From contig JAEOSI010000060.1 in assembly GCA_016840425.1 (NCBI GenBank), positions 1 to 10,350 on the forward strand: 10,350 nt of DNA, in the 5' to 3' direction. The position numbers and the translations under genes are program-made. Every line of letters begins with the position of its first letter. Position 1 is the first letter of the stretch. This stretch comes from Candidatus Wukongarchaeum yapensis (GTDB taxonomy: Archaea; Asgardarchaeota; Wukongarchaeia; Wukongarchaeales; Wukongarchaeaceae). The notes under the pieces are model-generated. The model did not search any database. It was not told the origin of the DNA and was given only the letters and a program-made list of their open reading frames with translations. Positions 1-10,350 of the stretch are shown here, piece by piece.

Positions 1-323
1 CCATGTTTTGTCTCAGTTATTATCATTTTTTGTCTCATACGAATAATAGAGCGTGCTTCACGCAAAATAACTTCAACATGACTTGGAGGCTTATCAATCA
101 ACTTGGTAATACTACAAGCAAACTCTGAGGGAGAAACCTTTGTTAAATCGATAACGCGTCCCCCAGCCGTTGAAACAATTTTAGAAGTAACAACAAGAAC
201 ATCCCCCTCCTTAAACCCTCCAACATTTTTCTCAGCAGAACTAATTAAAATCTCAGAAACATCATCACCAATCTTTACAATCGGTGTAGGTAAAGGAAAT
301 AAACCTATCTCCATCATCTTCAT
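1..323 (-). CDS. cofE: Coenzyme F420-0:L-glutamate ligase, N-terminal part (truncated by the left window edge; not in the ORF track)
   Basis: Manual translation from ATG at 323 (alternative ATGs at 317 and 314): MKMMEIGLFPLPTPIVKIGDDVSEILISSAEKNVGGFKEGDVLVVTSKIVSTAGGRVIDLTKVSPSEFACSITKLIDKPPSHVEVILREARSIIRMRQKMIITETKHG. This carries the CofE hallmarks P-x-(V/I)-x-x-GDD, GD(V/I)LVV(T/A)SKIVS-x-A-x-GR and ITET(K/R)HG. An AGGGTTG purine tract precedes the start. Confidence 0.9.
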   Translation of the reverse strand, partial: MKMMEIGLFPLPTPIVKIGDDVSEILISSAEKNVGGFKEGDVLVVTSKIVSTAGGRVIDLTKVSPSEFACSITKLIDKPPSHVEVILREARSIIRMRQKMIITETKH

Positions 324-620
324 CAACCCTAAAAACCGAAAAACCAGCCCCTATTTAAAAACTATAACATTATTTATAATGGGATAAATAACAAATCCTT
401 ACCAAAAAACGACTGAAAACATCAAAAAATGCTAAAAAATGAAGATTAAGAAAGAATAGTCAGATTAAATTAAAGATATTAAGAAGCTTTTAACTATTTT
501 AAAAGATTAAAAAAGAGAAAGAAAAGCTAAGTGCTTTTTTTTGCTATTTTCTTGATTTTTCTACTTACACTCAGCTTTAAAGCAGTCATTATCATTATTT
601 AAGATGTTTTAATTTTTGTT

Positions 621-1610
621 TTAGCCGAATTTGGGCTTGATGCTTTCACCAAAGATCTCTAAGGCTCTCTTCTTTTTCACACCTATCGGACTGCCTACCA
701 CGAACTGTGTTACGCCTGCCTTTTCCAGCGCTTTTATCCGGTCTATGCAGTCGTCCGCTTTTCCAGCCACTGCAAAAGCGTTAATCATATCTTCAGTTAC
801 ACTTCCGAAAGCCGTGCCGAAATCACCTTTTGCAATTGCATCCTTTATTTTATCTGCATCGCTTACGGCTATACCATGGTGTTCTAAGACGGGAGGCGGC
901 GAACCAGCTACTATAAACGCAACCACGGATGAAGCTTCTTTTCTTGCAGCTGCCGCATCATCATCTACTGAGAAACACGTATAACCTACAACATCGACAT
1001 CGCTTAAAGATTTGCCAGCAGCTTCGCAACCTTCTTTTATATTAGGCAAAGCTACATCAAAATCTTTCGGACTTGAAGCATTAATCAAAACGCCCTCGCC
1101 ATATTGGGCTGCTGTTTTAAGCATTTTTGGTCCCTGAGCACCTATATAAATCGGGATACTTCTTTTGGTTTTAAAGTTAAATTTCGCGCCAGAAATCTCG
1201 AAAACTTGACCCTTCAGTTTAGACTTTTCGTTGTTAAGGAGCGTGCGGATTATTTGAACCGCTTCTTTAACCGCAGTTAGGGGTTTTGTCCAAGGAATAC
1301 CTAACTGTGCTAGGGTGGCCTTATCACCTGCTCCAATACCGAAGACAGCTCTACCGTCTGAAACTTCATCTATAGAAGCTATTGCGGCAGCCGTCCAGCA
1401 AGGATTGCTAGTATAAGGGTTAGTTACACCAGTACCGAGAAGCAGTTTTGAAGTTTGAGCGGCGATAGCGCCTAAGGAAACATACACGTTACGGTTGTTA
1501 TAGTGATCAGTCACCCAACAGAATTCAAAACCTCTTTGCTCTGCATCAACCGCAGTTCCTACTAATTTCTCAATTTTAGTTGCAGGCAATAACTCTATTC
1601 CAAATTTCAT
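621..1610 (-). CDS. mer: F420-dependent 5,10-methylene-tetrahydromethanopterin reductase (luciferase-like TIM barrel)
   Basis: 329 aa with the Mer motifs MKFGIE, W(V/I)[47 protein letters not shown] and [21 protein letters not shown] lies 10 nt upstream. Confidence 0.95.
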
Positions 1611-1620
1611 AGCGATTTTT

Positions 1621-1626
1621 CCTCCT
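1621..1626 (-). promoter_or_regulatory. Shine-Dalgarno site of mer
   Basis: cctcct on the + strand is AGGAGG on the - strand, 10 nt before the ATG at 1610. Confidence 0.75.
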
Positions 1627-1849
1627 TATTTAACAAGTTTTAAAATTTTTAGAAAAATATTTTCAGCATTTTCTAATTTGCGCGCCTTTTTTTAATTTTT
1701 TCGATTTTTACGCGAGAATTTAACACTTTATTTTTTCAAAAAAAGAGTTTTCAGCGACTATTTAGGCAAATAAGGATTATTAAAGGTTAAAAATGTTTCG
1801 GCAAAAAATAGGTTATAGAAGGGAAAATCGAACAAAAAAATAAACATTT

Positions 1850-1951
1850 TTAAGATTCGAATAGTTCAAGAAGTTCTTTTTCGTATTTTTCTTTCAGTTC
1901 TTCAAGTTTTATTTTCACTTCAGGATTGTTCGGCGTTTTTAAACAGGTCAA
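1850..1951 (-). CDS. Candidate 33-aa small protein or pseudogene remnant
   Basis: TTG start, translation (M)TCLKTPNNPEVKIKLEELKEKYEKELLELFES-TAA. It has an amphipathic E/K/L helix pattern and purine-rich codons like the real genes here. No clear RBS and no ATG start. Confidence 0.3.
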   Translation of the reverse strand: MTCLKTPNNPEVKIKLEELKEKYEKELLELFES

Positions 1952-2139
1952 AAGATTTACAGCGTTTATTCAAACCTAAAAAAACGGGGTATTTTTCAGT
2001 TAATTGATTTAAAAATAACTCTATAAATTGAGAATAGGTTTTTCTAAAAACGCCAAAAATCAACTTTAATTTGGGATAAATGATTATGTGAATTGTTCTG
2101 CCCTTAAGGAAGGGTTTTCTTATATCTTAATTATTAAAA

Positions 2140-4401
2140 TTATTTTAGATATGCAGTCTTTTGATAGGGCTTTATGCTTTTTTTAGTAAGTAGAATAAAT
2201 GCTAAGATAAATAAGAGGGCAAAAGTCCCTGAAATTGCTGTCCCGATTAACCCTATCGTTCCTTCCTGAATTGCAAAAAATATAGACGTGGCTATTAATA
2301 CTGTCGCTAGAATCAGGGTAAGAAGCGGGACGTACTTTGGCATTTCAATCTTAGAACGGCGGAAAAATATCTCTATCGGTTTTTTCTGTATGAATATTCT
2401 TTCAACAGTTTTTCCTAGCTTAACTTCCTCGCTCCCTACCTTTAGACTAAATTCTATATTGAGGGGGAAGTCTCCGAGTGCTAAAGGTTTAGCCTGGAAC
2501 TTTATCTCCTTTTTTTTCCTCTCTAATATCTCCTTTATTCTTATTTTTAAGCCGGTTGGGATTATTTTTAAAGCTGTGCATGCAGGCATGATTTTAATAA
2601 CCCCTTCAGAAACTATTTCTGGATTGATTTTTTCCATTTCTAAAGCTTCTGGAGGTTTTTTAATGGAAATTCCGATCTCGTAATCTCCTTTTATGGCCAT
2701 CCTCTGCCAATAAATTATTTCGCAGTGTTCCTTAATCATCTTCCTCAATTTTTCAGCAATAGCTTCTAATTCAGCTCCTTCCTCCAGCATACTAGGAGTA
2801 GTAATAACCTCTTCCTCCTCTTCTTTAACCTTTTCAGCGGCCATAATCTCCTCTTCAGGGACTTCCCTCTCAACTATTTCTTCTTCTCCTATGGTCTCCA
2901 TAACCTCCTCTTTTTCAACAACTTCTATGGCCTCCTCCACAGGAGCTTCTTCCAGTTCCTCTTCTTCCCCTATTTCTAATATTTCCTCTTTTGGTTGCCA
3001 AACAATTTTCTCTTCTCTCATCATTGATAGGGCTTTGGTAAGATCTTTTGATAGTGTTTTCATTTGCTCTTTAAGCATATCAGTATCCTCAGAAGAGGAA
3101 AGAAGGGGCGTAATTATGCGAGGAGTAGTTTCAGGGATAGAAGTTTCAATTTCCCCAAGAGAAGGTTCTGCACCTATTTTTATGGAGACAAAAACATTGC
3201 TTATCGGATACTCTATGCTTAAAACGTGTTCAAGCTCAATAGCCTCTTCTCCCACATAGTAATCTTTTTGAATCTTCTCCATTTCAGGAAGCATCGTCTC
3301 GATTTTTGGATAACCTACCAACGTAGGCATAACTACCCTAGGTCTATTTTCCCCAGAAAAACCTGCTTTTGTGATATCAGCTCCTATATCCAATATAATC
3401 GGGACTTCAAAAGTTTCAGCTATCTTTTCAGTTTCAGGATCAGGAGACGTGCTCATAATCGTTTGAAACCTTTTCTCTTCAATTATCGAAACGCCCTTCT
3501 CCTCAAATGCTTTCTTTGTTATCCATAACCTGTTTGATGTTTTAATGGAAGTAAGAATGCTTGCGCCAACCCACTCTCCATGTTGAGATTCTGCGGGTGC
3601 AAGAATTTTAGCCTTGTAATTTTTAGGCAAAAGCCTTTTTAATTCCTTTAAAAGCCTCTCCTTCAAACCTGGTAAAGCACTTATTTCCCCAGAAACTACG
3701 ACTGATTCCACGATTTCTTTACGTAGATCATCATCACATCTATCCACTGCTTCCACTATCGCTTCAGGCAGCGATTTTTCGTCGATTTCACCTATAGAGG
3801 GGGTGAAAAGGATTTCGGGTGCCATAAATCGTTCAGCATTAAGCGTTATTATCTCCCCAAAAGGAGTCTCATAAACCTTTTCTATAGCCTCGGGTTTTTC
3901 CGCAATTTTAACTTCTTCATCAAAGTCTAAAGATACATAACAAAACTTTTCCTTAATATCTTTCAAAAATCTCTTTTCTGGACCCGTTGTAAATAACATA
4001 CCTTTTTCGCCCAGAAGTTTTTCAAGAGTTTTCGTAATTGTTTTACCACCAAGTTTAAGAGAAACCATGGCTTCAACTATCGGCCTTGCATCTTTAATAG
4101 GCACAATTTCAGTAAAGTCTTCCCCTATATTAACGATAATACCTGTAACTTTCCCTGTACTAAAAAGCGCAAGAACGTTTTTATCCAGCAACATTACTGC
4201 AGGAACATTTATTCTTTCAAAACAAAACCTTACCAAGGTTTCTCTTTCGCTTTTCGTAATCATCACGGAGTCTGGGAAAACGAGGGGATGAAGAGTAGAT
4301 TCCACACGAAAGGTTTCTTGAAGAATATAGTTGATCATTTGCTCTAAAGCATCCCAATTTTTAATAGCTCTAACAGGGAAAACCTTACTTATCGCCATCA
4401 C
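2140..4401 (-). CDS. Circularly permuted, membrane-anchored actin-related protein (actin fold + acidic stalk + predicted beta-sandwich + 2 TM helices)
   Basis: aa ~7-312 match actin ~68-375: NWDALEQM~NWDDMEKI, FERINVPA~FETFNVPA, DIKEKFCYVSLDF~DIKEKLCYVALDF, ERFMAPEILFTP~ERFRCPETLFQP, WITKKAFEEKGVSIIEEKRF~[20 protein letters not shown]. aa 334-401 match actin ~7-72: IILDIGADITKAGFSGENRPRVVMPTLVG~[29 protein letters not shown], and QKDYYVGEEA...LSIEYPI~QKDSYVGDEA...LTLKYPI. Hydrophobic segments occur at aa ~691-710 and ~715-738. Start is GTG 4401 or ATG 4398, after GAGGGTTGA. Confidence 0.9.
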   Translation of the reverse strand: MMAISKVFPVRAIKNWDALEQMINYILQETFRVESTLHPLVFPDSVMITKSERETLVRFCFERINVPAVMLLDKNVLALFSTGKVTGIIVNIGEDFTEIVPIKDARPIVEAMVSLKLGGKTITKTLEKLLGEKGMLFTTGPEKRFLKDIKEKFCYVSLDFDEEVKIAEKPEAIEKVYETPFGEIITLNAERFMAPEILFTPSIGEIDEKSLPEAIVEAVDRCDDDLRKEIVESVVVSGEISALPGLKERLLKELKRLLPKNYKAKILAPAESQHGEWVGASILTSIKTSNRLWITKKAFEEKGVSIIEEKRFQTIMSTSPDPETEKIAETFEVPIILDIGADITKAGFSGENRPRVVMPTLVGYPKIETMLPEMEKIQKDYYVGEEAIELEHVLSIEYPISNVFVSIKIGAEPSLGEIETSIPETTPRIITPLLSSSEDTDMLKEQMKTLSKDLTKALSMMREEKIVWQPKEEILEIGEEEELEEAPVEEAIEVVEKEEVMETIGEEEIVEREVPEEEIMAAEKVKEEEEEVITTPSMLEEGAELEAIAEKLRKMIKEHCEIIYWQRMAIKGDYEIGISIKKPPEALEMEKINPEIVSEGVIKIMPACTALKIIPTGLKIRIKEILERKKKEIKFQAKPLALGDFPLNIEFSLKVGSEEVKLGKTVERIFIQKKPIEIFFRRSKIEMPKYVPLLTLILATVLIATSIFFAIQEGTIGLIGTAISGTFALLFILAFILLTKKSIKPYQKTAYLK

Positions 4402-4560
4402 TCAACCCTCAAAATAGGAGTAGGTGAACTCCTCAATTCCTTAATCATTTCAAATAAACACTAAACTAAAATCTATGCCTTGGCTAAACCCTACCTAAAC
4501 TATTGTTTATCTAAGTCTCCTTTATTAATCTTTTTAAGTTTATTTACCTTACAAAACCTT

Positions 4561-4600
4561 AAAAAAATCCACAAAATAAAATTAGGAGAAAGAAGAAGTT
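4561..4600 (-). terminator. Possible archaeal oligo-T terminator downstream of nadC
   Basis: Minus strand reads ...cttcttctttctcctaattttattttgtggattttttt, a pyrimidine/T-rich tract about 80-120 nt after the nadC stop. Confidence 0.3.
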
Positions 4601-4678
4601 TGTGATCTACCAGTTTATCGCCTTTAAAACTTATTATCAATTTTTTAAAAACCAGTTTCTAAGTTTTTTCATATGGAA

Positions 4679-5527
4679 TTAAACGGGTTCAAGTTTTAGG
4701 GAGAAATCAAGGGCTGGGGCTGAATGTGTAATACACCCCATAGAAATCACGTCGACACCCGTTTTCCCAAACTCAGCAATATTTTCGAGAGTTACGTTAC
4801 CAGAAACTTCAATAATCACTTTATCACGCAAATTTTCTTGGCTGATAAGCTTCAAAGTTTCCCTTATTTTTTCTGGTGGAAAATTGTCAAGCATTACTAT
4901 ATCTGCTCCCGCCTTAATCGCGGTTAAAGCATCTTCAGAACTCTCTACTTCTACTTCTACTTTTTTCACAAAACTTATCCTTTTTTTTACTTCTCCAACC
5001 GCTTTTGCTACGTCGCCTATAATGGCTAAATGGTTTGTTTTAATCAAAACACAGTCATCAAGCCTATATCTGTGTGTATCTCCCCCTCCATTTTCTACCG
5101 CTTTTTTTTCCATAAAATGCATATCTGGTAACGTTTTCCTTGTGGCAGCTACGCGGGTATTTAAACCTAATTTTTTTAATTCCGAAACTGCTAGGAAGGT
5201 TAAAGTAGCAATGCCAGACAGATGCATTAAAAGATTTAAAGCGACACGCTCTCCTAAAAGGATAGATTTTGCAAGTCCCTCAAGCTCCATTACTTTCTCC
5301 TCTGAAACAACCTTATCTCCATCAAACTTTAAAACACGCACCTTAACACCCAATAACTCAAACAGTCTTGAGGCATATCTTACCCCAGATAAAACCCCCT
5401 CCGACTTAGAAATGATATAACCTCGAGTTTTTTCGCCTTCAGAAATCACGATATCCGACGTTAAATCGCAAAAACCCACATCTTCCTCTAAAAAACGAAG
5501 AAGCAACTGATCAATTATGGGGTTCAT
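4679..5527 (-). CDS. nadC: Nicotinate-nucleotide diphosphorylase (carboxylating), i.e. quinolinate phosphoribosyltransferase
   Basis: 282 aa with L-x-EDVG-x-x-DLTS, LLGERVALN, ATRKT-x-P, HRYRLDDCVLIKTNH, VEVEV, ADIVMLDNF, IEVSGNVT and GVDVISMG-x-ITHSAPALDFSL. AGGAGA RBS at 5537-5542. Confidence 0.96.
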   Translation of the reverse strand: MNPIIDQLLLRFLEEDVGFCDLTSDIVISEGEKTRGYIISKSEGVLSGVRYASRLFELLGVKVRVLKFDGDKVVSEEKVMELEGLAKSILLGERVALNLLMHLSGIATLTFLAVSELKKLGLNTRVAATRKTLPDMHFMEKKAVENGGGDTHRYRLDDCVLIKTNHLAIIGDVAKAVGEVKKRISFVKKVEVEVESSEDALTAIKAGADIVMLDNFPPEKIRETLKLISQENLRDKVIIEVSGNVTLENIAEFGKTGVDVISMGCITHSAPALDFSLKLEPV

Positions 5528-5589
5528 AGTCCATAATCTCCTTAAGCTTAGTTAAAAGGGTGTTAAGAACTTGGAACAAACATAATGTG

Positions 5590-5641
5590 TAAGAGACTCT
5601 TCTATCGCTTTAATATAAGAGACTCCTCTATTGGTTTAATA
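5590..5641. repeat. 26-bp tandem direct repeat (2 copies, 23/26 identical) between nadA and nadC
   Basis: taagagactcttctatcgctttaata (5590-5615) followed immediately by taagagactcctctattggtttaata (5616-5641). Confidence 0.9.
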
Positions 5642-5649
5642 CATGTTTT

Positions 5650-6582
5650 TTAGCTGCTTAGTTTTAACATTTTTTTGATCGCTTTTTCTACCTTTTCCGC
5701 TATTTCTTCAGGAACTGAAATGATTTTGTTTTCTTTTTCTAGAACTTCTACTATCTTTTCTAAGTTGATTCTTTTCATTTGGCGGCATATTGCTGTAGAT
5801 AAGGCGGGAATAACCTTTTTTCCGGGTAATGTATACTGTAATCTTTCAATAAGCCCGATTTCGGTAGCAATTATAACGGTTTCGCTATCTGTTTCTTTGG
5901 CAAATTTTATGAGTTGGGCGGTACTTCCAATAAAGTCTGCAATTTGTTGAAGTTCAGGATCACATTCAGGATGAACTGCAAGAACAGAATTTTCATAACT
6001 ATCTTTTAAATCTAATACCCTATCAATTTCAAACGTTTTATGAACGTAACAATAACCTTTCTTGGGATAGTTTATCACTTTCACGCCTGACTTTTGAGCG
6101 GCAAACCATCCTAAATTAGCATCTGGGCCAAAAAGAACCTTGTTATCTTTAGCAACCGCTTTAGCGATTTTAGGCGCATTAGAGCTTGTACAAATCACAT
6201 CACACTCAGCTTTAGTCTCGGCAAGAGTGTTAATGTAAGCAACAAAAGGTATGTTTGGATGCTCTTCTTTAGCGCGAATTACTTCTTTTGGAGGCAGTTG
6301 AGCAGCCATGGGACAACGTGCACTTAAATCCGGTAAAAGAACGCTTTTATCAGGGTTCAGAATGCTCGCGGTTTCGGCCATGAAATCAACGCCACAAAAG
6401 CATATAATATCCGCATCATGAGCGTTTTGAGCAGTTCTTGCAAGTTCCAAGCTATCTCCCACAAAATCTCCCACTTGCTGAACCTCGAAAGGTTGATAGT
6501 TGTGAGCCAAAATGATGGCGTTTTTCTCCTCTTTCAACTGATAAATTTTCTCTTGAAGCTTCTGTATCTGTAAAGTTTGCAT
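5650..6582 (-). CDS. nadA: Quinolinate synthase A ([4Fe-4S])
   Basis: 310 aa with ILAHNYQ, GDSLELA, FCGVDFMAETA, CPMA, AYINT, CTSSNA, FGPDANLG, CYVH, HPEC, GSTAQL, TEIGL and C-x-x-MKRI. The three cluster-ligating cysteines are present. Confidence 0.96.
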   Translation of the reverse strand: MQTLQIQKLQEKIYQLKEEKNAIILAHNYQPFEVQQVGDFVGDSLELARTAQNAHDADIICFCGVDFMAETASILNPDKSVLLPDLSARCPMAAQLPPKEVIRAKEEHPNIPFVAYINTLAETKAECDVICTSSNAPKIAKAVAKDNKVLFGPDANLGWFAAQKSGVKVINYPKKGYCYVHKTFEIDRVLDLKDSYENSVLAVHPECDPELQQIADFIGSTAQLIKFAKETDSETVIIATEIGLIERLQYTLPGKKVIPALSTAICRQMKRINLEKIVEVLEKENKIISVPEEIAEKVEKAIKKMLKLSS

Positions 6583-6709
6583 GGTAGAAACCTCTGGACA
6601 TCCTGTTAACTTTTATAGTAACTTTTAAAACAAGTTAGGGCTAACATTAATATCCGACTAAAAAATAAAAATATCACCATTTATAGATATCTTTCGCTTT
6701 AAAAGTTTA

Positions 6710-6715
6710 AGGAGG
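6710..6715 (+). promoter_or_regulatory. Shine-Dalgarno site of the FrhB/FpoF-like gene
   Basis: AGGAGG 8 nt upstream of the ATG at 6724. Confidence 0.75.
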
Positions 6716-6723
6716 ATTACTAA

Positions 6724-7785
6724 ATGAGTGATGTAGACGAAGGATTCGATGTATTAAAAGAATTCGTTATAGATAGAGGTACATGCTGTGGTTGTGGCTT
6801 GTGTGTCACTATGTGCACCAAAGGCTTAATTGCTTTTGACGGAATCCCAAAACTTGTAGGTGAATGCACGGAATGCGGAAGGTGTAACTGGAATTGTCCA
6901 AGACTCCCTTCAGCAGAAACTGGCGAGGTCATCCCTTCAGTGCCCAAGGCTGAAAACGCTACAGAAGACGAATTAATCGGGCCATATAATGAACTATTGG
7001 GCGGAGAAGCTGTTAAGAACGAGATTTTAGAGCGGTGTCAGGATGGTGGTGTAGTTACGGCGATCTTGTGTGCTTGCTTAGAGAGCGGGTATATTGATGG
7101 GGCTATTGTTACTGGGATTGATCCTGGACATCCTTGGAAGGCTAAACCGATGGTGGCTACAACAACGGATGAGATAATAGCTGCAGCAGGCACGAAATAC
7201 CTATACCCTGCAGAGCTCTCCATGATCAAAAAGGCCATAAAAGAGTCAAAGCTTGAAAAAATCGCCGTTGTTACAAGACCTTGTGGCGCCCAAGCTGTCA
7301 GGAAAATGCAAAATTCCGATAAAAAAGCCATTCAAAGAATGGGCGAAAAGGTCAAACTACTTTTAGGTCTTTTCTGCATGGAAAGCTTTTCAGACGATTT
7401 TCTGCAAAAAGAAGCTGCAGAAAAGAGAGGAATAGCTTTAGAAGACATAAAAAAAGTTAACATTAAAAAAGACTTCATAATAACTCCAAAAGCCGAAGAA
7501 AACGTTGTTATACCGATGGACGAAGCTTCCTCTTACATCAGAGACGGCTGCCACTTTTGCGCAGATTTTGCTTCAGAGTATGCTGATGTTAGTTGCGGAG
7601 CCGTAGGAACAAAAGAAGGTTCATCCACAATAATAGTACGCAATAATACAGGCAAAGAAGCTGTAGAACTTGCAACCAGCAACGGATGGCTCAGCACAAG
7701 AACCGTTTCAGAAAAAGCCCTAAAAGTACCACAAGCCCTATCTAAACGCAAAAAAGAACATGCAAAACCCATACCTTCAAGATAA
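6724..7785 (+). CDS. Coenzyme F420 hydrogenase/dehydrogenase beta-subunit family protein with N-terminal 2x[4Fe-4S] ferredoxin domain (FpoF/FqoF-like architecture)
   Basis: N-terminal CxxCxxCxxxC twice (CCGCGLCVTMC and CTECGRCNWNCP). FrhB-family motifs: QDGGVVTAIL, AAGTKY, VVTRPC, LGLFCMESF and CHFCADF-x-S-x-x-ADVSCGAVG. Confidence 0.9.
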   Translation: MSDVDEGFDVLKEFVIDRGTCCGCGLCVTMCTKGLIAFDGIPKLVGECTECGRCNWNCPRLPSAETGEVIPSVPKAENATEDELIGPYNELLGGEAVKNEILERCQDGGVVTAILCACLESGYIDGAIVTGIDPGHPWKAKPMVATTTDEIIAAAGTKYLYPAELSMIKKAIKESKLEKIAVVTRPCGAQAVRKMQNSDKKAIQRMGEKVKLLLGLFCMESFSDDFLQKEAAEKRGIALEDIKKVNIKKDFIITPKAEENVVIPMDEASSYIRDGCHFCADFASEYADVSCGAVGTKEGSSTIIVRNNTGKEAVELATSNGWLSTRTVSEKALKVPQALSKRKKEHAKPIPSR

Positions 7786-8310
7786 AAAAATAAACAAAAT
7801 AAACTCCACACACAAAAATCGACTAAAACATGCTAAATTTTTATTTTATCCATGTGGGCGAGAAGGCTCCATACAGAAGGATAGAGATGAAAACCCGCAG
7901 GCCTTAGATATGCCGGTTTTCTATACCCTAATAAAACAGCCTTTTAGGCTACATGCTCAAGAGCAGGACTGTCCTATGCCTGGATCATGTATAAATGGAA
8001 GTGAACCAGCTCAAAACTCCCCCAATGGACAGTGAACTTTTAGAGATTCAGCATGCGAGAGAAGAAGTTCCCCGCAATATCTGAGATTAGTTCACGAAAT
8101 ATCGTTGCAAAAGAGCTTATACTTCCACAAAAAAGTAGAAAGCGATGAAATGCAACTAAAAACAAAACGCTTTCCTACTTCCCTATTTTTCGCCCCCTCT
8201 AAGCCCATCCTACCTTCATTCACCATTTCGCTAATGGAAAGTGGGAAATGTTTTTTTATAAAAGAAAACATAAAAAAGCATGTTTTTTGAAGATGAGGAT
8301 TGTGTGAAAA

Positions 8311-10020
8311 TTGGGTAACAAAAGGGAGAAAAAAAAGGAAGAGGAATTAGTTGAAGAAGAGGGGGAAGAGGAGGAAGAGGAGGAAAGGGAAGAAGAAGTA
8401 GAGGGAGAGCTTGAGGAAGAAGAGGAATTAGTTGAAGAAGAGGAGGAAGAGGAGGAAAGGGAAGAAGAAGTAGAGGGAGAGCTTGAGGAAGAGGAACCTC
8501 TTGTCTGGGAAGAAACGGTATGGAAAACCACGCCTGTTAAGATTGGGGAAGAAATCGAGGAAAAAGAAGAAGGAGAAGAGGAGGTAGAGGTAGGAATACC
8601 AACAGAAGAGGAAATAACGATAAAAGTAGAGTCCCCAACACCCATAGAAGAAGAGGAGTTAGAAGCTTTAATAGAGGAAGAAGAGTTAGAGGAAGAGGAA
8701 GTTGGTGGAGAGTTAGAAGAAAAAATAGAGAAGATATTGGAGAAGCAGGTAGAGCAAGTTAGTGAAGAAGTAGAGGAAGAGGAGTTACTAGAGGAGGAGG
8801 AAGAAGAAGAGGAGGAAGAAGAAGAGGAGGAAGAAGAAGAGGAGGAAGAGGAGATTGGTGAAGAAGTAGAGGAAGAGGAGTTACTAGAAGAGCGGGAGAT
8901 AGAGGACAAACTTTCAAAAATTGGCATATCTTATGAAAAAGATGTCATGGAAACAGTAAAACCAAAACCTGAAGACATCTTTGAAGAAATACTTAATGAC
9001 CAAAAAAGCATTTATGAAAAAGTAATAGAAACGATAAAAGTGCCATTACCCCTCTTTTTGCCAATTTTTATCTTGATAGTATACGGCTTATTTTCAAGCA
9101 CGATCAATTTTTACGGTAATTCAAAAGACTGGGATCTACTATTAGAGGATTGGGTAACTCCATTTTTAATATCCGCCGCCATAACCTCTATGTGGGGTTT
9201 TATCATCATAGGTTCAAGAACAGCAAGGAATTTTTATTATGAGATTAACGACCAGGTTAACGCGCCGAAAAAAGCTTTTCAAAAGCTTTTCTTAAAAGAG
9301 GTTAAAAAATTTTTAAAAGATTGGAAAATCCCCATATTAGGCCTCTTTATTGCCCTAGGCGCCGTTTTGCTTGTAAGATCCAGTAGCAGCTGGTACTCCT
9401 CAAAAGTTGCCACAAACACCCACTACGTCGTTTTAGGTCTTTCGTTCTGGTTCCTCAGTATTGGTCTTGGGATACTTCTTAGAATGGTGTCTTTTACAAG
9501 ATCAATGGGGGGAGTAAATTTCCACGTAAACTTTTTCCACCCAGATGAAAATGCAGGTCTCCTACCTTTAGGGAACCTAAGCCTAAAAATTGCGTCCATG
9601 ATCGCCATAATTTTCAGCCTCCTAACAGCAGGCCTCGTCGGGATTTTAGATAAAAGCGGGAACGATGCTAATAAACTCATCTTATGGAGTTTCCCCCTAG
9701 CCTGTGTTATTTTATCTGTTTTTCTTTTCATTTCCCCCCTATTTAGCTCTCACGATCTTATTGTAAAAGAAAAAAAGGCGGAAATGTTAAATTGGAAAGG
9801 TAGTTACGGAAAACTTGCAAAAGAATTCTTCCTCTACCTAACCGAACACAAAACCATAGATCTACAGACAGGGATAGGCATTCAAGTCCTAAGTAACATA
9901 TATCGGGAGATAAAAAAGGTGCCTAATTGGCCTTTTAACACAAAAATTATCATGAAATTAACTTTGATTGCGCTACTCCCCCTTCTAACATTCCTATTTA
10001 CAAAAGAAATAATCATTTAA
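8311..10020 (+). CDS. Uncharacterised polytopic membrane protein with a ~200-aa poly-glutamate N-terminal region
   Basis: 569 aa from a TTG start (in-frame TGA at 8305-8307 upstream; first ATG is at 8947). aa 1-201 are about 56% Glu by hand count. About 7 hydrophobic segments follow from aa ~245, with FHPDENAGLLPLG and PNWPF motifs. Confidence 0.8.
   Translation: MGNKREKKKEEELVEEEGEEEEEEEREEEVEGELEEEEELVEEEEEEEEREEEVEGELEEEEPLVWEETVWKTTPVKIGEEIEEKEEGEEEVEVGIPTEEEITIKVESPTPIEEEELEALIEEEELEEEEVGGELEEKIEKILEKQVEQVSEEVEEEELLEEEEEEEEEEEEEEEEEEEEEIGEEVEEEELLEEREIEDKLSKIGISYEKDVMETVKPKPEDIFEEILNDQKSIYEKVIETIKVPLPLFLPIFILIVYGLFSSTINFYGNSKDWDLLLEDWVTPFLISAAITSMWGFIIIGSRTARNFYYEINDQVNAPKKAFQKLFLKEVKKFLKDWKIPILGLFIALGAVLLVRSSSSWYSSKVATNTHYVVLGLSFWFLSIGLGILLRMVSFTRSMGGVNFHVNFFHPDENAGLLPLGNLSLKIASMIAIIFSLLTAGLVGILDKSGNDANKLILWSFPLACVILSVFLFISPLFSSHDLIVKEKKAEMLNWKGSYGKLAKEFFLYLTEHKTIDLQTGIGIQVLSNIYREIKKVPNWPFNTKIIMKLTLIALLPLLTFLFTKEIII
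8338..8490 (+). repeat. Intragenic tandem duplication (81-bp and 72-bp units)
   Basis: EEELVEEEGEEEEEEEREEEVEGELEE (8338-8418) and EEELVEEEEEEEEREEEVEGELEE (8419-8490) are identical at DNA level apart from a 9-nt indel. Confidence 0.9.
8762..8888 (+). repeat. 31-bp direct repeats flanking a (GAGGAGGAAGAAGAA)x3 minisatellite within a run of 21 Glu codons
   Basis: gtgaagaagtagaggaagaggagttactaga occurs at 8762-8792 and 8858-8888. The 15-mer is repeated three times at 8794-8838. Confidence 0.88.
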
Positions 10021-10229
10021 AGATAAACTTTTAGATTAAAAAAACCTATTCTAAAAACTAGAAAAAAACATCACTATTTCTCTATAAATATGACATAAAC
10101 AAAAGACTAATATCTCACCTAAAAAAGTCTTTACGTGAGGTTTTCAAAGCGATAAAATCTACGTAAAATTAATATTTGAGACAATCAAGCAAAAAAGAAA
10201 CCAACTAAAAAAGAAACTTGAAAATATTC

Positions 10230-10236
10230 GAGGTGA
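10230..10236 (+). promoter_or_regulatory. Shine-Dalgarno site of mch
   Basis: GAGGTGA (canonical archaeal SD) 7 nt before the ATG at 10244. Confidence 0.75.
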
Positions 10237-10243
10237 AAAATTA

Positions 10244-10350
10244 ATGGTTAGCGTAAACACTCAAGCAACCAAATTAATAACCGAATGCATGATGAAAGAT
10301 CTAGAGCGGATAAATTGTCGAGCAACCAAGTGGAGCAATGGTGCAACTTG
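10244..10350 (+). CDS. mch: Methenyltetrahydromethanopterin cyclohydrolase, N-terminus (truncated by the right window edge; not in the ORF track)
   Basis: MVSVNTQATKLITECMMKDLERINCRATKWSNGAT resembles the Mch N-terminal pattern M(V/L)SVN-x-x-A-x-K(I/L)...(L/E)NG(A/S)T(V/I)ID. It has a strong SD and lies near mer. Only 35 codons are visible. Confidence 0.8.
   Translation, partial: MVSVNTQATKLITECMMKDLERINCRATKWSNGAT

Follow-up and report, generated by a model that had tools for sequence, protein, structure and literature searches.

A circularly permuted Asgard archaeal actin with a degenerate nucleotide pocket is a probable pseudo-ATPase

Does an actin with a heavily altered nucleotide pocket still run the ATP hydrolysis cycle? 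The question is raised by a stretch of DNA of 10,350 nucleotides (hereafter, the window) from Candidatus Wukongarchaeum yapensis, an Asgard archaeon (assembly GCA_016840425.1, contig JAEOSI010000060.1, positions 1 to 10,350). In this window an open reading frame (ORF) of the reverse strand (2140..4401) codes for a protein in which an acidic linker connects a circularly permuted actin domain to a C-terminal domain and, after it, a transmembrane hairpin of two hydrophobic helices. An original prediction, made from the sequence of the window alone, regarded the actin domain as a probable pseudo-ATPase with acidic residues that may fill the nucleotide cleft. Our comparisons suggest, with a probability of about two in three, that the domain has kept the actin fold and neither runs nor senses an ATP hydrolysis cycle. 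The two parts of the original prediction fare differently. The loss of hydrolysis and of nucleotide-state sensing is well supported by the pocket residues, because every clamp, water and sensor element is altered and the sensor loop is itself the breakpoint of the permutation. The loss of ATP binding, as judged from the same residues, is not well supported.

The protein is a circularly permuted actin, in which the equivalent of actin 76-375 precedes that of actin 7-75. It matches the Pfam profile Actin (PF00022) with 288.8 bits (cut-off 27, E=7e-86) in two stretches of swapped order, i.e., profile positions 69-409 come ahead of positions 5-69 within one ORF. Actins of the PDB match it at 1e-79 to 1e-88, and the top match is HC1 actin (PDB 9wc4, 1.4e-88). 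The large piece (aa 13-312, 3466..4365, on the reverse strand like all features of the protein given below) corresponds to subdomains 3, 4 and part of 1, and includes K74, the second phosphate (P2) loop and the adenosine motif. The HMMER alignments of this piece to 1yag, 8thx and 9wc4 are ungapped, e.g., it aligns to residues 76-375 of yeast actin (1yag) with zero gaps. A linker of 21 residues (aa 313-333, 3403..3465) then connects what were the C-terminus and the N-terminus of the ancestral actin order. The equivalent of actin 7-75 (aa 334-404, 3190..3402) follows, with the hairpin of the first phosphate (P1) loop, subdomain 2, the DNase-binding loop (D-loop) and a remnant of the sensor loop. 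Its alignment contains a single 2-residue insertion, after the D-loop. Actin numbering is obtained by adding 63 to the residue number in the large piece and by subtracting 327 in the P1 hairpin.

Residue numbers count here from the GTG at 4399-4401, which gives a protein of 753 aa. This codon is directly followed by an ATG (together 4396-4401), with a GAGG motif upstream. The ATG at 4396-4398 is probably the true start, because the orthologues begin with MAISK (all their N-termini read MAISK or MVASK). The protein would then have 752 aa, and numbers in orthologues are one lower.

The identification of pocket residues depends on the alignment register. An alignment with nine Asgard actins by MAFFT, run either with the permuted domains de-permuted in silico or with the canonical actins given as separate fragments, reproduced the register of HMMER, with no indel in any motif. 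The AlphaFold2 (AF2) model of the actin domain had an overall predicted local distance difference test score (pLDDT) of 77 and was confident over aa 13-340. The core (aa 20-330) scored mostly 80-98, with dips to 73-77 near aa 270-290 and to 66 at aa 311-320. Foldseek superposed this model on actins with template modelling (TM) scores of 0.70/0.78 and a root-mean-square deviation of ~1.9 Å over 298 columns. A second AF2 model, for which canonical actins were given as N- and C-terminal fragments for deeper coverage of aa 334-405, was worse (pLDDT 52.9), and we kept the first. The helix of the linker (322-328) is present in both.

In actin, the P1 loop (13-16) and the P2 loop (156-159) form the clamp on the phosphates. 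The lytic water is held by Q137, and a helper water by D154, H161 and the carbonyl of V159. The carbonyl of G158 also bonds the methyl-His73 of the sensor loop, thereby coupling both lobes to the nucleotide state (PMC9618068). In the window protein the P1 loop DNGTGLTK (actin 11-18) became DIGADITK (aa 338-345, 3367..3390), i.e., N12I, S/T14A, G15D and L16I, with D11, G13 and K18 kept (D338, G340 and K345). The P2 loop DSGDGVTH (actin 154-161) became NIGEDFTE (aa 91-98, 4108..4131), i.e., D154N, S155I, D157E, G158D, V159F and H161E, with G156 kept (G93). Q137 is replaced by K74 (4180..4182). The adenosine motif GGSTMF (actin 301-306) reads GEISAL (aa 238-243, 3673..3690), with G302E, M305A and F306L; G301 is kept (G238). 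K213 and E214 (K150 and E151, 3949..3954) are retained in every sequence compared. The equivalent of N111 is also changed in the permuted pocket. The remnant of the sensor loop, YPISNVF (aa 398-404, 3190..3210; actin 69-75 YPIEHGI), carries E72S, H73N and G74V, and the chain exits the fold at this point; the domain's N-terminal end has only a remnant of the loop, FPVRAIKNWD. R177, which has a role in phosphate release through the "back door" of actin, is replaced by S114 (4060..4062). The patterns of a competent actin, i.e., the P1 loop D11-x-G13-x-G15/K18, the P2 loop D154-x-G156-D157-G158, the Q137/H161 pair and the adenosine motif, are thus all broken in this protein.

These results agree with the residue assignments of the original prediction. 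The three replacements of glycines by acidic residues, G15 by D342 (3376-3378), G158 by D95 (4117-4119) and G302 by E239 (3685-3687), were recovered residue by residue with both HMMER and MAFFT, and the codons of the named residues match the span 3364-4182 given for them. The other proposed changes (S14A, D154N, Q137 to K74, H161 to E98 and K336 to Q273) were found in ungapped register, as were the residues proposed to be retained (D11, G13, K18, G156, G301, K213 and E214). The His73-Gly74 sensor is lost at the permutation point, as had been suggested. Only one of the changes lost its value as evidence: K336Q is uninformative, because position 336 varies in canonical Asgard actins (R/Q/H/M).

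To place these changes we searched for relatives of the window protein. Among 1.84 billion representative proteins, an exhaustive pass with HMMER gave collinear matches to only two clusters of permuted actins, hereafter families A and B. Family A includes the window protein and full-length orthologues with 79-97% identity in four other assemblies (Logan, NCBI, ENA and JGI), of which the one from NCBI carries the name Candidatus Hodarchaeota archaeon. Its ORFs are intact in the five assemblies (740-763 aa), with zero frameshifts. The source genome (92% complete, 277 contigs) encodes two further actins: a canonical one of the 375-aa class with all motifs intact (contig C185), and a permuted one of family B with the motifs DMGAELTK and SIGYTSTE and the GG retained. 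The gene of the latter is split by a contig break, and lies on C97 (L002:1-1713:-) with its C-terminus on C22 (L019:19-492:+). Families A and B are 47% identical over the actin domain. Family B is 58% identical to the canonical actin, and the window protein has 36-41% identity with canonical Asgard actins over the actin fold. Among 400 genomes of the phylum, permuted actins that match collinearly are confined to the source genus, and both genomes of this genus have both families. A tree of the de-permuted domains unites A and B in a single clade (support 1.0) adjoining the lokiactins of this order. The stem shared by the two families measures 0.42 substitutions per site, with 0.87 more leading to A. 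The ratio of nonsynonymous to synonymous substitution rates (dN/dS) amounts to 0.33 (family A) and 0.21 (family B), and is well below 1 in both domains of both families. Hence, these are maintained genes.

We then compared the pockets of nine canonical Asgard actins, including that of the source genome, with those of nine permuted actins (five of family A and four of family B). The canonical actins are near-invariant at the altered positions, save 336: D11, N12, G13, G15, L16, K18, Q137, D154-H161, R177, D179, G182, R183, K213, E214, G301-F306 and R335 are the same in all nine. Twelve positions are changed in all nine permuted actins (12, 15, 137, 154, 155, 157, 158, 161, 177, 305, 306 and 335). 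Four of the changes are identical throughout (Q137K, S155I, H161E and F306L), D154 is always lost (Asn in eight, Ser in one), and R177 is always Ser or Thr. Single orthologues diverge further, with G156 replaced by Glu in one (P0003) and G182 by Asp in another. Since the key changes are common to both families, the loss of catalysis probably goes back to the ancestor that they share. H161E, like the K74/E98 pair as a whole, is fixed and looks like rebuilding rather than decay in these alignments. An Asp or Glu at the equivalent of position 161 is also usual in MreB, ParM and Hsp70. Lys at position 137 is not among the eight commonest residues listed for 172 actin-family domains.

The acidic filling of the cleft, as a conserved feature, did not survive this comparison. 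Among the members of family A, position 15 reads D, D, N, N and S and position 158 reads D, D, N, N and N. The corresponding series of family B are E, E, K and K, and T, T, M and M, with Tyr at position 157. Orthologues with 79-89% identity to the window protein thus carry Asn or Ser instead of Asp at position 15, and Asn at position 158. Only the acidic residue at position 302 is fixed, and this within family A, to which G302E is confined; family B retains the glycine. Of 156 aligned actin-family domains, 152 have Gly at this position and not one has Glu. The net charge of the pocket is about -3 in the window protein and about 0 to +2 in family B. We also rejected the replacement of three glycines by acidic residues as a signature of the family. 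The window protein has lost eight of the 22 glycines that are invariant in canonical actins, and a fourth change to an acidic residue, G268E, lies outside the pocket. Only three of the 22 are absent from every one of the nine permuted actins, namely G15, G158 and G343 (Ala in place of the last). The acidic residues are hence best described, on the basis of these alignments, as a lineage-specific state and no conserved mimic of ATP. In the window protein itself, the pair G15D and G158D may mimic phosphates. Asp is the commonest replacement at position 15 and second to Ser at position 158 (among the same 172 domains), and the pair recurs in unrelated clusters, including the collinear actin paralogue P0060.

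In the permuted actins, the tip glycines of both phosphate clamps (G15 and G158) are thus replaced throughout and drift freely. Q137 and H161 are rebuilt into Lys and Glu, D154 and R177 are lost, and the H73 sensor loop is severed by the permutation. We propose that these actins would no longer bind Mg-ATP in the canonical manner. The case is clearest for family A, in which a near-invariant glycine has gained a side chain through G302E. The cleft could be held by side-chain contacts instead. The candidate for these is the fixed K74/E98 pair, which may span the cleft as a substitute for the gamma-phosphate and the water network. The domain would be a static module for protein binding, suspended from the membrane by the acidic linker and the transmembrane hairpin.

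The variability of alignment columns is in line with a loss of constraint on the pocket. Among 28 pocket positions, two are variable in canonical actins, against 121 of the 330 other columns (p=8e-4). The corresponding counts are 5/28 and 62/330 in family A, 6/28 and 61/330 in family B, and 17/28 and 200/330 in all permuted actins, i.e., there is no conservation above background. The extra constraint on the pocket of canonical actins seems therefore gone in the permuted ones, because the pocket columns of A and B vary like the rest. Changes relative to canonical actins are disproportionate in the pocket of family B (14/26 vs 61/209 elsewhere, p=0.014).

Several points weigh against the pseudo-ATPase reading. 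The pocket of family A is not significantly more changed than the rest of the domain (17/26 vs 107/209, p=0.21). The 28 pocket positions were our choice, fixed in advance on the basis of actin structures. The column tests overstate independence and are indicative only, since the nine permuted sequences are closely related. The AF2 model has a pLDDT below 50 at the tip of the P1 loop (aa 341-343) and over aa 351-405 (subdomain 2). With D11, G13, K18, G156, T160, K213, E214 and G301 retained, the pocket might still accommodate a nucleotide in a modified way. Family A orthologues have Ser or Asn at position 15, where ParM, MreB and Hsp70 normally carry Ser or Thr. Finally, the pocket of the yeast actin-related protein (Arp) Arp7 is degenerate to a comparable degree and even lacks K18 and D11, and yet its affinity for ATP is nanomolar (PMC5969521).

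The last point leads to the main rival explanation, a permanently bound and non-hydrolysed nucleotide. The permuted actins would be pseudoenzymes that use ATP or ADP as a structural cofactor to keep the cleft closed, like Arp4 or like Arp7 in the Rtt102-Arp7/9 complex. In that complex Arp9 is nucleotide-free and Arp7 is bound to ATP without hydrolysing it; Arp7 has a dissociation constant of 12 µM alone and of 94-200 nM in complex, zero ATPase activity, and only nine of 26 pocket residues conserved (PMC5969521). Because Arp7 binds ATP with so few of these residues, a degenerate sequence by itself cannot show that ATP is excluded. The analogy with nucleotide-independent Arp7 and Arp9 drawn in the original prediction therefore holds for the empty Arp9 and fails for Arp7, which binds ATP tightly. 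A structural nucleotide would also be consistent with the residues kept in all nine permuted actins (D11, G13, K18, T160, K213, E214 and G301, and also G156 save for the Glu of P0003), with the G302 of family B, and with the Ser or Asn at position 15 of some family A orthologues. We nevertheless regard it as unlikely. It must accommodate a Glu fixed in family A at an otherwise near-invariant glycine, the Met or Thr at position 158 and the Tyr at position 157 of family B, the changes of M305, F306 and R335 on the adenine side in all permuted actins, and pocket columns that are no more conserved than background.

A working ATPase with rebuilt chemistry, in which E98 acts as the general base, like the Asp or Glu at this position in ParM, MreB and Hsp70, and K74 stabilises the transition state, seems highly improbable. 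In its favour, neither K74 nor E98 varies among the nine permuted actins, which come from two families that are only 47% identical, a pattern that looks like selection and not drift, and the generic phosphate-2 motif of the acetate and sugar kinases/Hsp70/actin (ASKHA) superfamily ends in Asp or Glu. However, all nine have Asn or Ser in place of D154, the metal- and water-binding Asp of the whole superfamily. The residues at the tips of the clamps vary and are bulky or charged (D/N/S/E/K and D/N/T/M), which would be intolerable in a conserved active site. In yeast actin, Q137E is lethal and H161 is required (PMC5969521). A decaying duplicate or an assembly artefact, whose motifs degenerate since the gene is non-functional, could draw on the fast evolution of family A and on a dN/dS of 0.33 that is high for an actin, but it is scarcely credible given the intact ORFs in five assemblies from four sources, the purifying values of dN/dS, the confident AF2 core and the gene order kept in an independent metagenome contig (see below).

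Pseudo-ATPase relatives of actin are already known, since non-catalytic proteins with the actin fold are familiar from the eukaryotic Arps; what is notable here is mainly the setting in a circularly permuted, membrane-tethered actin. We found nothing relevant on circularly permuted or transmembrane Asgard actins in the literature searched. Arp7 and Arp9 are, like the domain proposed here, non-catalytic structural subunits with heavily substituted pockets, including at Q137 and H161 (PMC5969521). Both are collinear, soluble proteins of the eukaryotic nucleus and obligate partners of a helicase-SANT-associated (HSA) helix. The likeness is functional only and implies no homology beyond the actin family, and the window protein keeps K18 and D11, which Arp7 lacks. 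Canonical Asgard actins (lokiactins, such as those of C185 and HC1 actin) belong to the same Pfam family. They are collinear and soluble proteins of about 375-400 aa with invariant pocket residues, unlike the window protein, which is permuted, predicted to be tethered to the membrane, degenerate in the pocket and diverged at the surfaces of filament contact.

These surfaces differ between the two permuted families. In family A the filament contacts have diverged, with few positions conserved in the D-loop (3/11), the target-binding cleft (1/6), the W-loop (2/8) and the plug (3/13). This fits a non-polymerising module that would not need hydrolysis coupled to polymerisation, and the window protein, with its altered pocket, is probably a passive scaffold rather than a builder of dynamic filaments. 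In family B the pointed face is canonical (8/11 in the D-loop and 12-13/16 in the contacts of subdomain 4), and the groove of the barbed face is changed. Family B proteins are possibly binders of filament ends. A more elaborate scenario, which we consider improbable, combines these elements. The permuted actins would have a nucleotide-independent, locked actin fold, closed by Lys74-Glu98 and a variable cluster of acidic and amide residues that may bind a bare cation. Anchored A and B would jointly form a static cap or anchor tying the ends of lokiactin filaments to the membrane.

Some observations concern the origin of the permuted proteins. The segment of the sensor loop (actin ~66-78) is found at both ends of the domain, as KVFPVRAIKNW (aa 6-16, 4354-4386) and EYPISNVF (aa 397-404, 3190-3213). 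Such a doubled segment is the footprint expected, at the level of sequence, if a tandem duplication had been followed by truncation of both ends. Three proteins of 742-767 aa (P0009, P0010 and P0013), the top hits outside families A and B among the 1.84 billion proteins, were considered as permuted relatives and rejected. They are eukaryote-like tandem actin-actin proteins, in which the repeat mimics the permuted order; their halves bear degenerate phosphate loops, e.g., DSGLDVTQ and IGHGSTQ. P0060 (MFX0092632.1, Candidatus Hodarchaeota archaeon, 433 aa) matches the Pfam profile with 337.7 bits, and has Q137S in addition to G15D and G158D, and a Cys-rich C-terminal tail. Together with P0079, a JGI "actin-related protein", it shares the G15D and G158D pair with the window protein, and both differ from it in being collinear, in having no C-terminal anchor and in keeping G302. 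We considered P0060 as a collinear intermediate; its placement relative to the permuted clade has a support of only 0.51. It could bear on whether the loss of the pocket came before the permutation.

The source genome also has an ORF of 404 aa on C187 (L007:544-1758:+) with an Actin match below the threshold (21 bits, cut-off 27), which may be a very divergent protein with the actin fold. The C-terminal module of the permuted actins, i.e., the beta-rich domain and the two hydrophobic helices, also occurs by itself in 11 genomes of a different family of the phylum (f33; L030-L039, G320-G394). Most of these ORFs measure 320-430 aa, and a few are shorter. The matches have E-values of 1e-10 to 1e-15 in ten of these genomes and of 2e-4 in one.

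The neighbours of the permuted actin gene in the window (a luciferase-like monooxygenase, NadC, NadA and FrhB) are metabolic and offer no clue to its function. The genes for FrhB-like, NadA and NadC (4679-7785) and the permuted actin are in the same order in a contig of 34 kb from an estuarine sediment (L045, JGI 3300002052, SMTZ1). This contig ends just downstream of the actin gene, with a weak Ras-like fragment. The window also contains, at 8311-10020 on the forward strand, an ORF of 569 aa without Pfam match in a strongly GC- and AT-skewed stretch.

A degenerate pocket is by itself a modest finding, and its nucleotide-free state is putative. If the pseudo-ATPase reading is right, the passage from a working actin to a static actin-shaped subunit would have occurred also outside eukaryotes, in an Asgard lineage derived from lokiactins. 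The permuted, membrane-tethered actin would then be viewed as a scaffold or an anchor, and not as a polymer that treadmills. The Lys and Glu that are fixed at positions 137 and 161 in two families, and the G15D and G158D pair that recurs in divergent relatives of actin would be targets for biochemical work. And if families A and B did form a cap or anchor together, they would be an archaeal linker between actin and the membrane that is made of actin itself.

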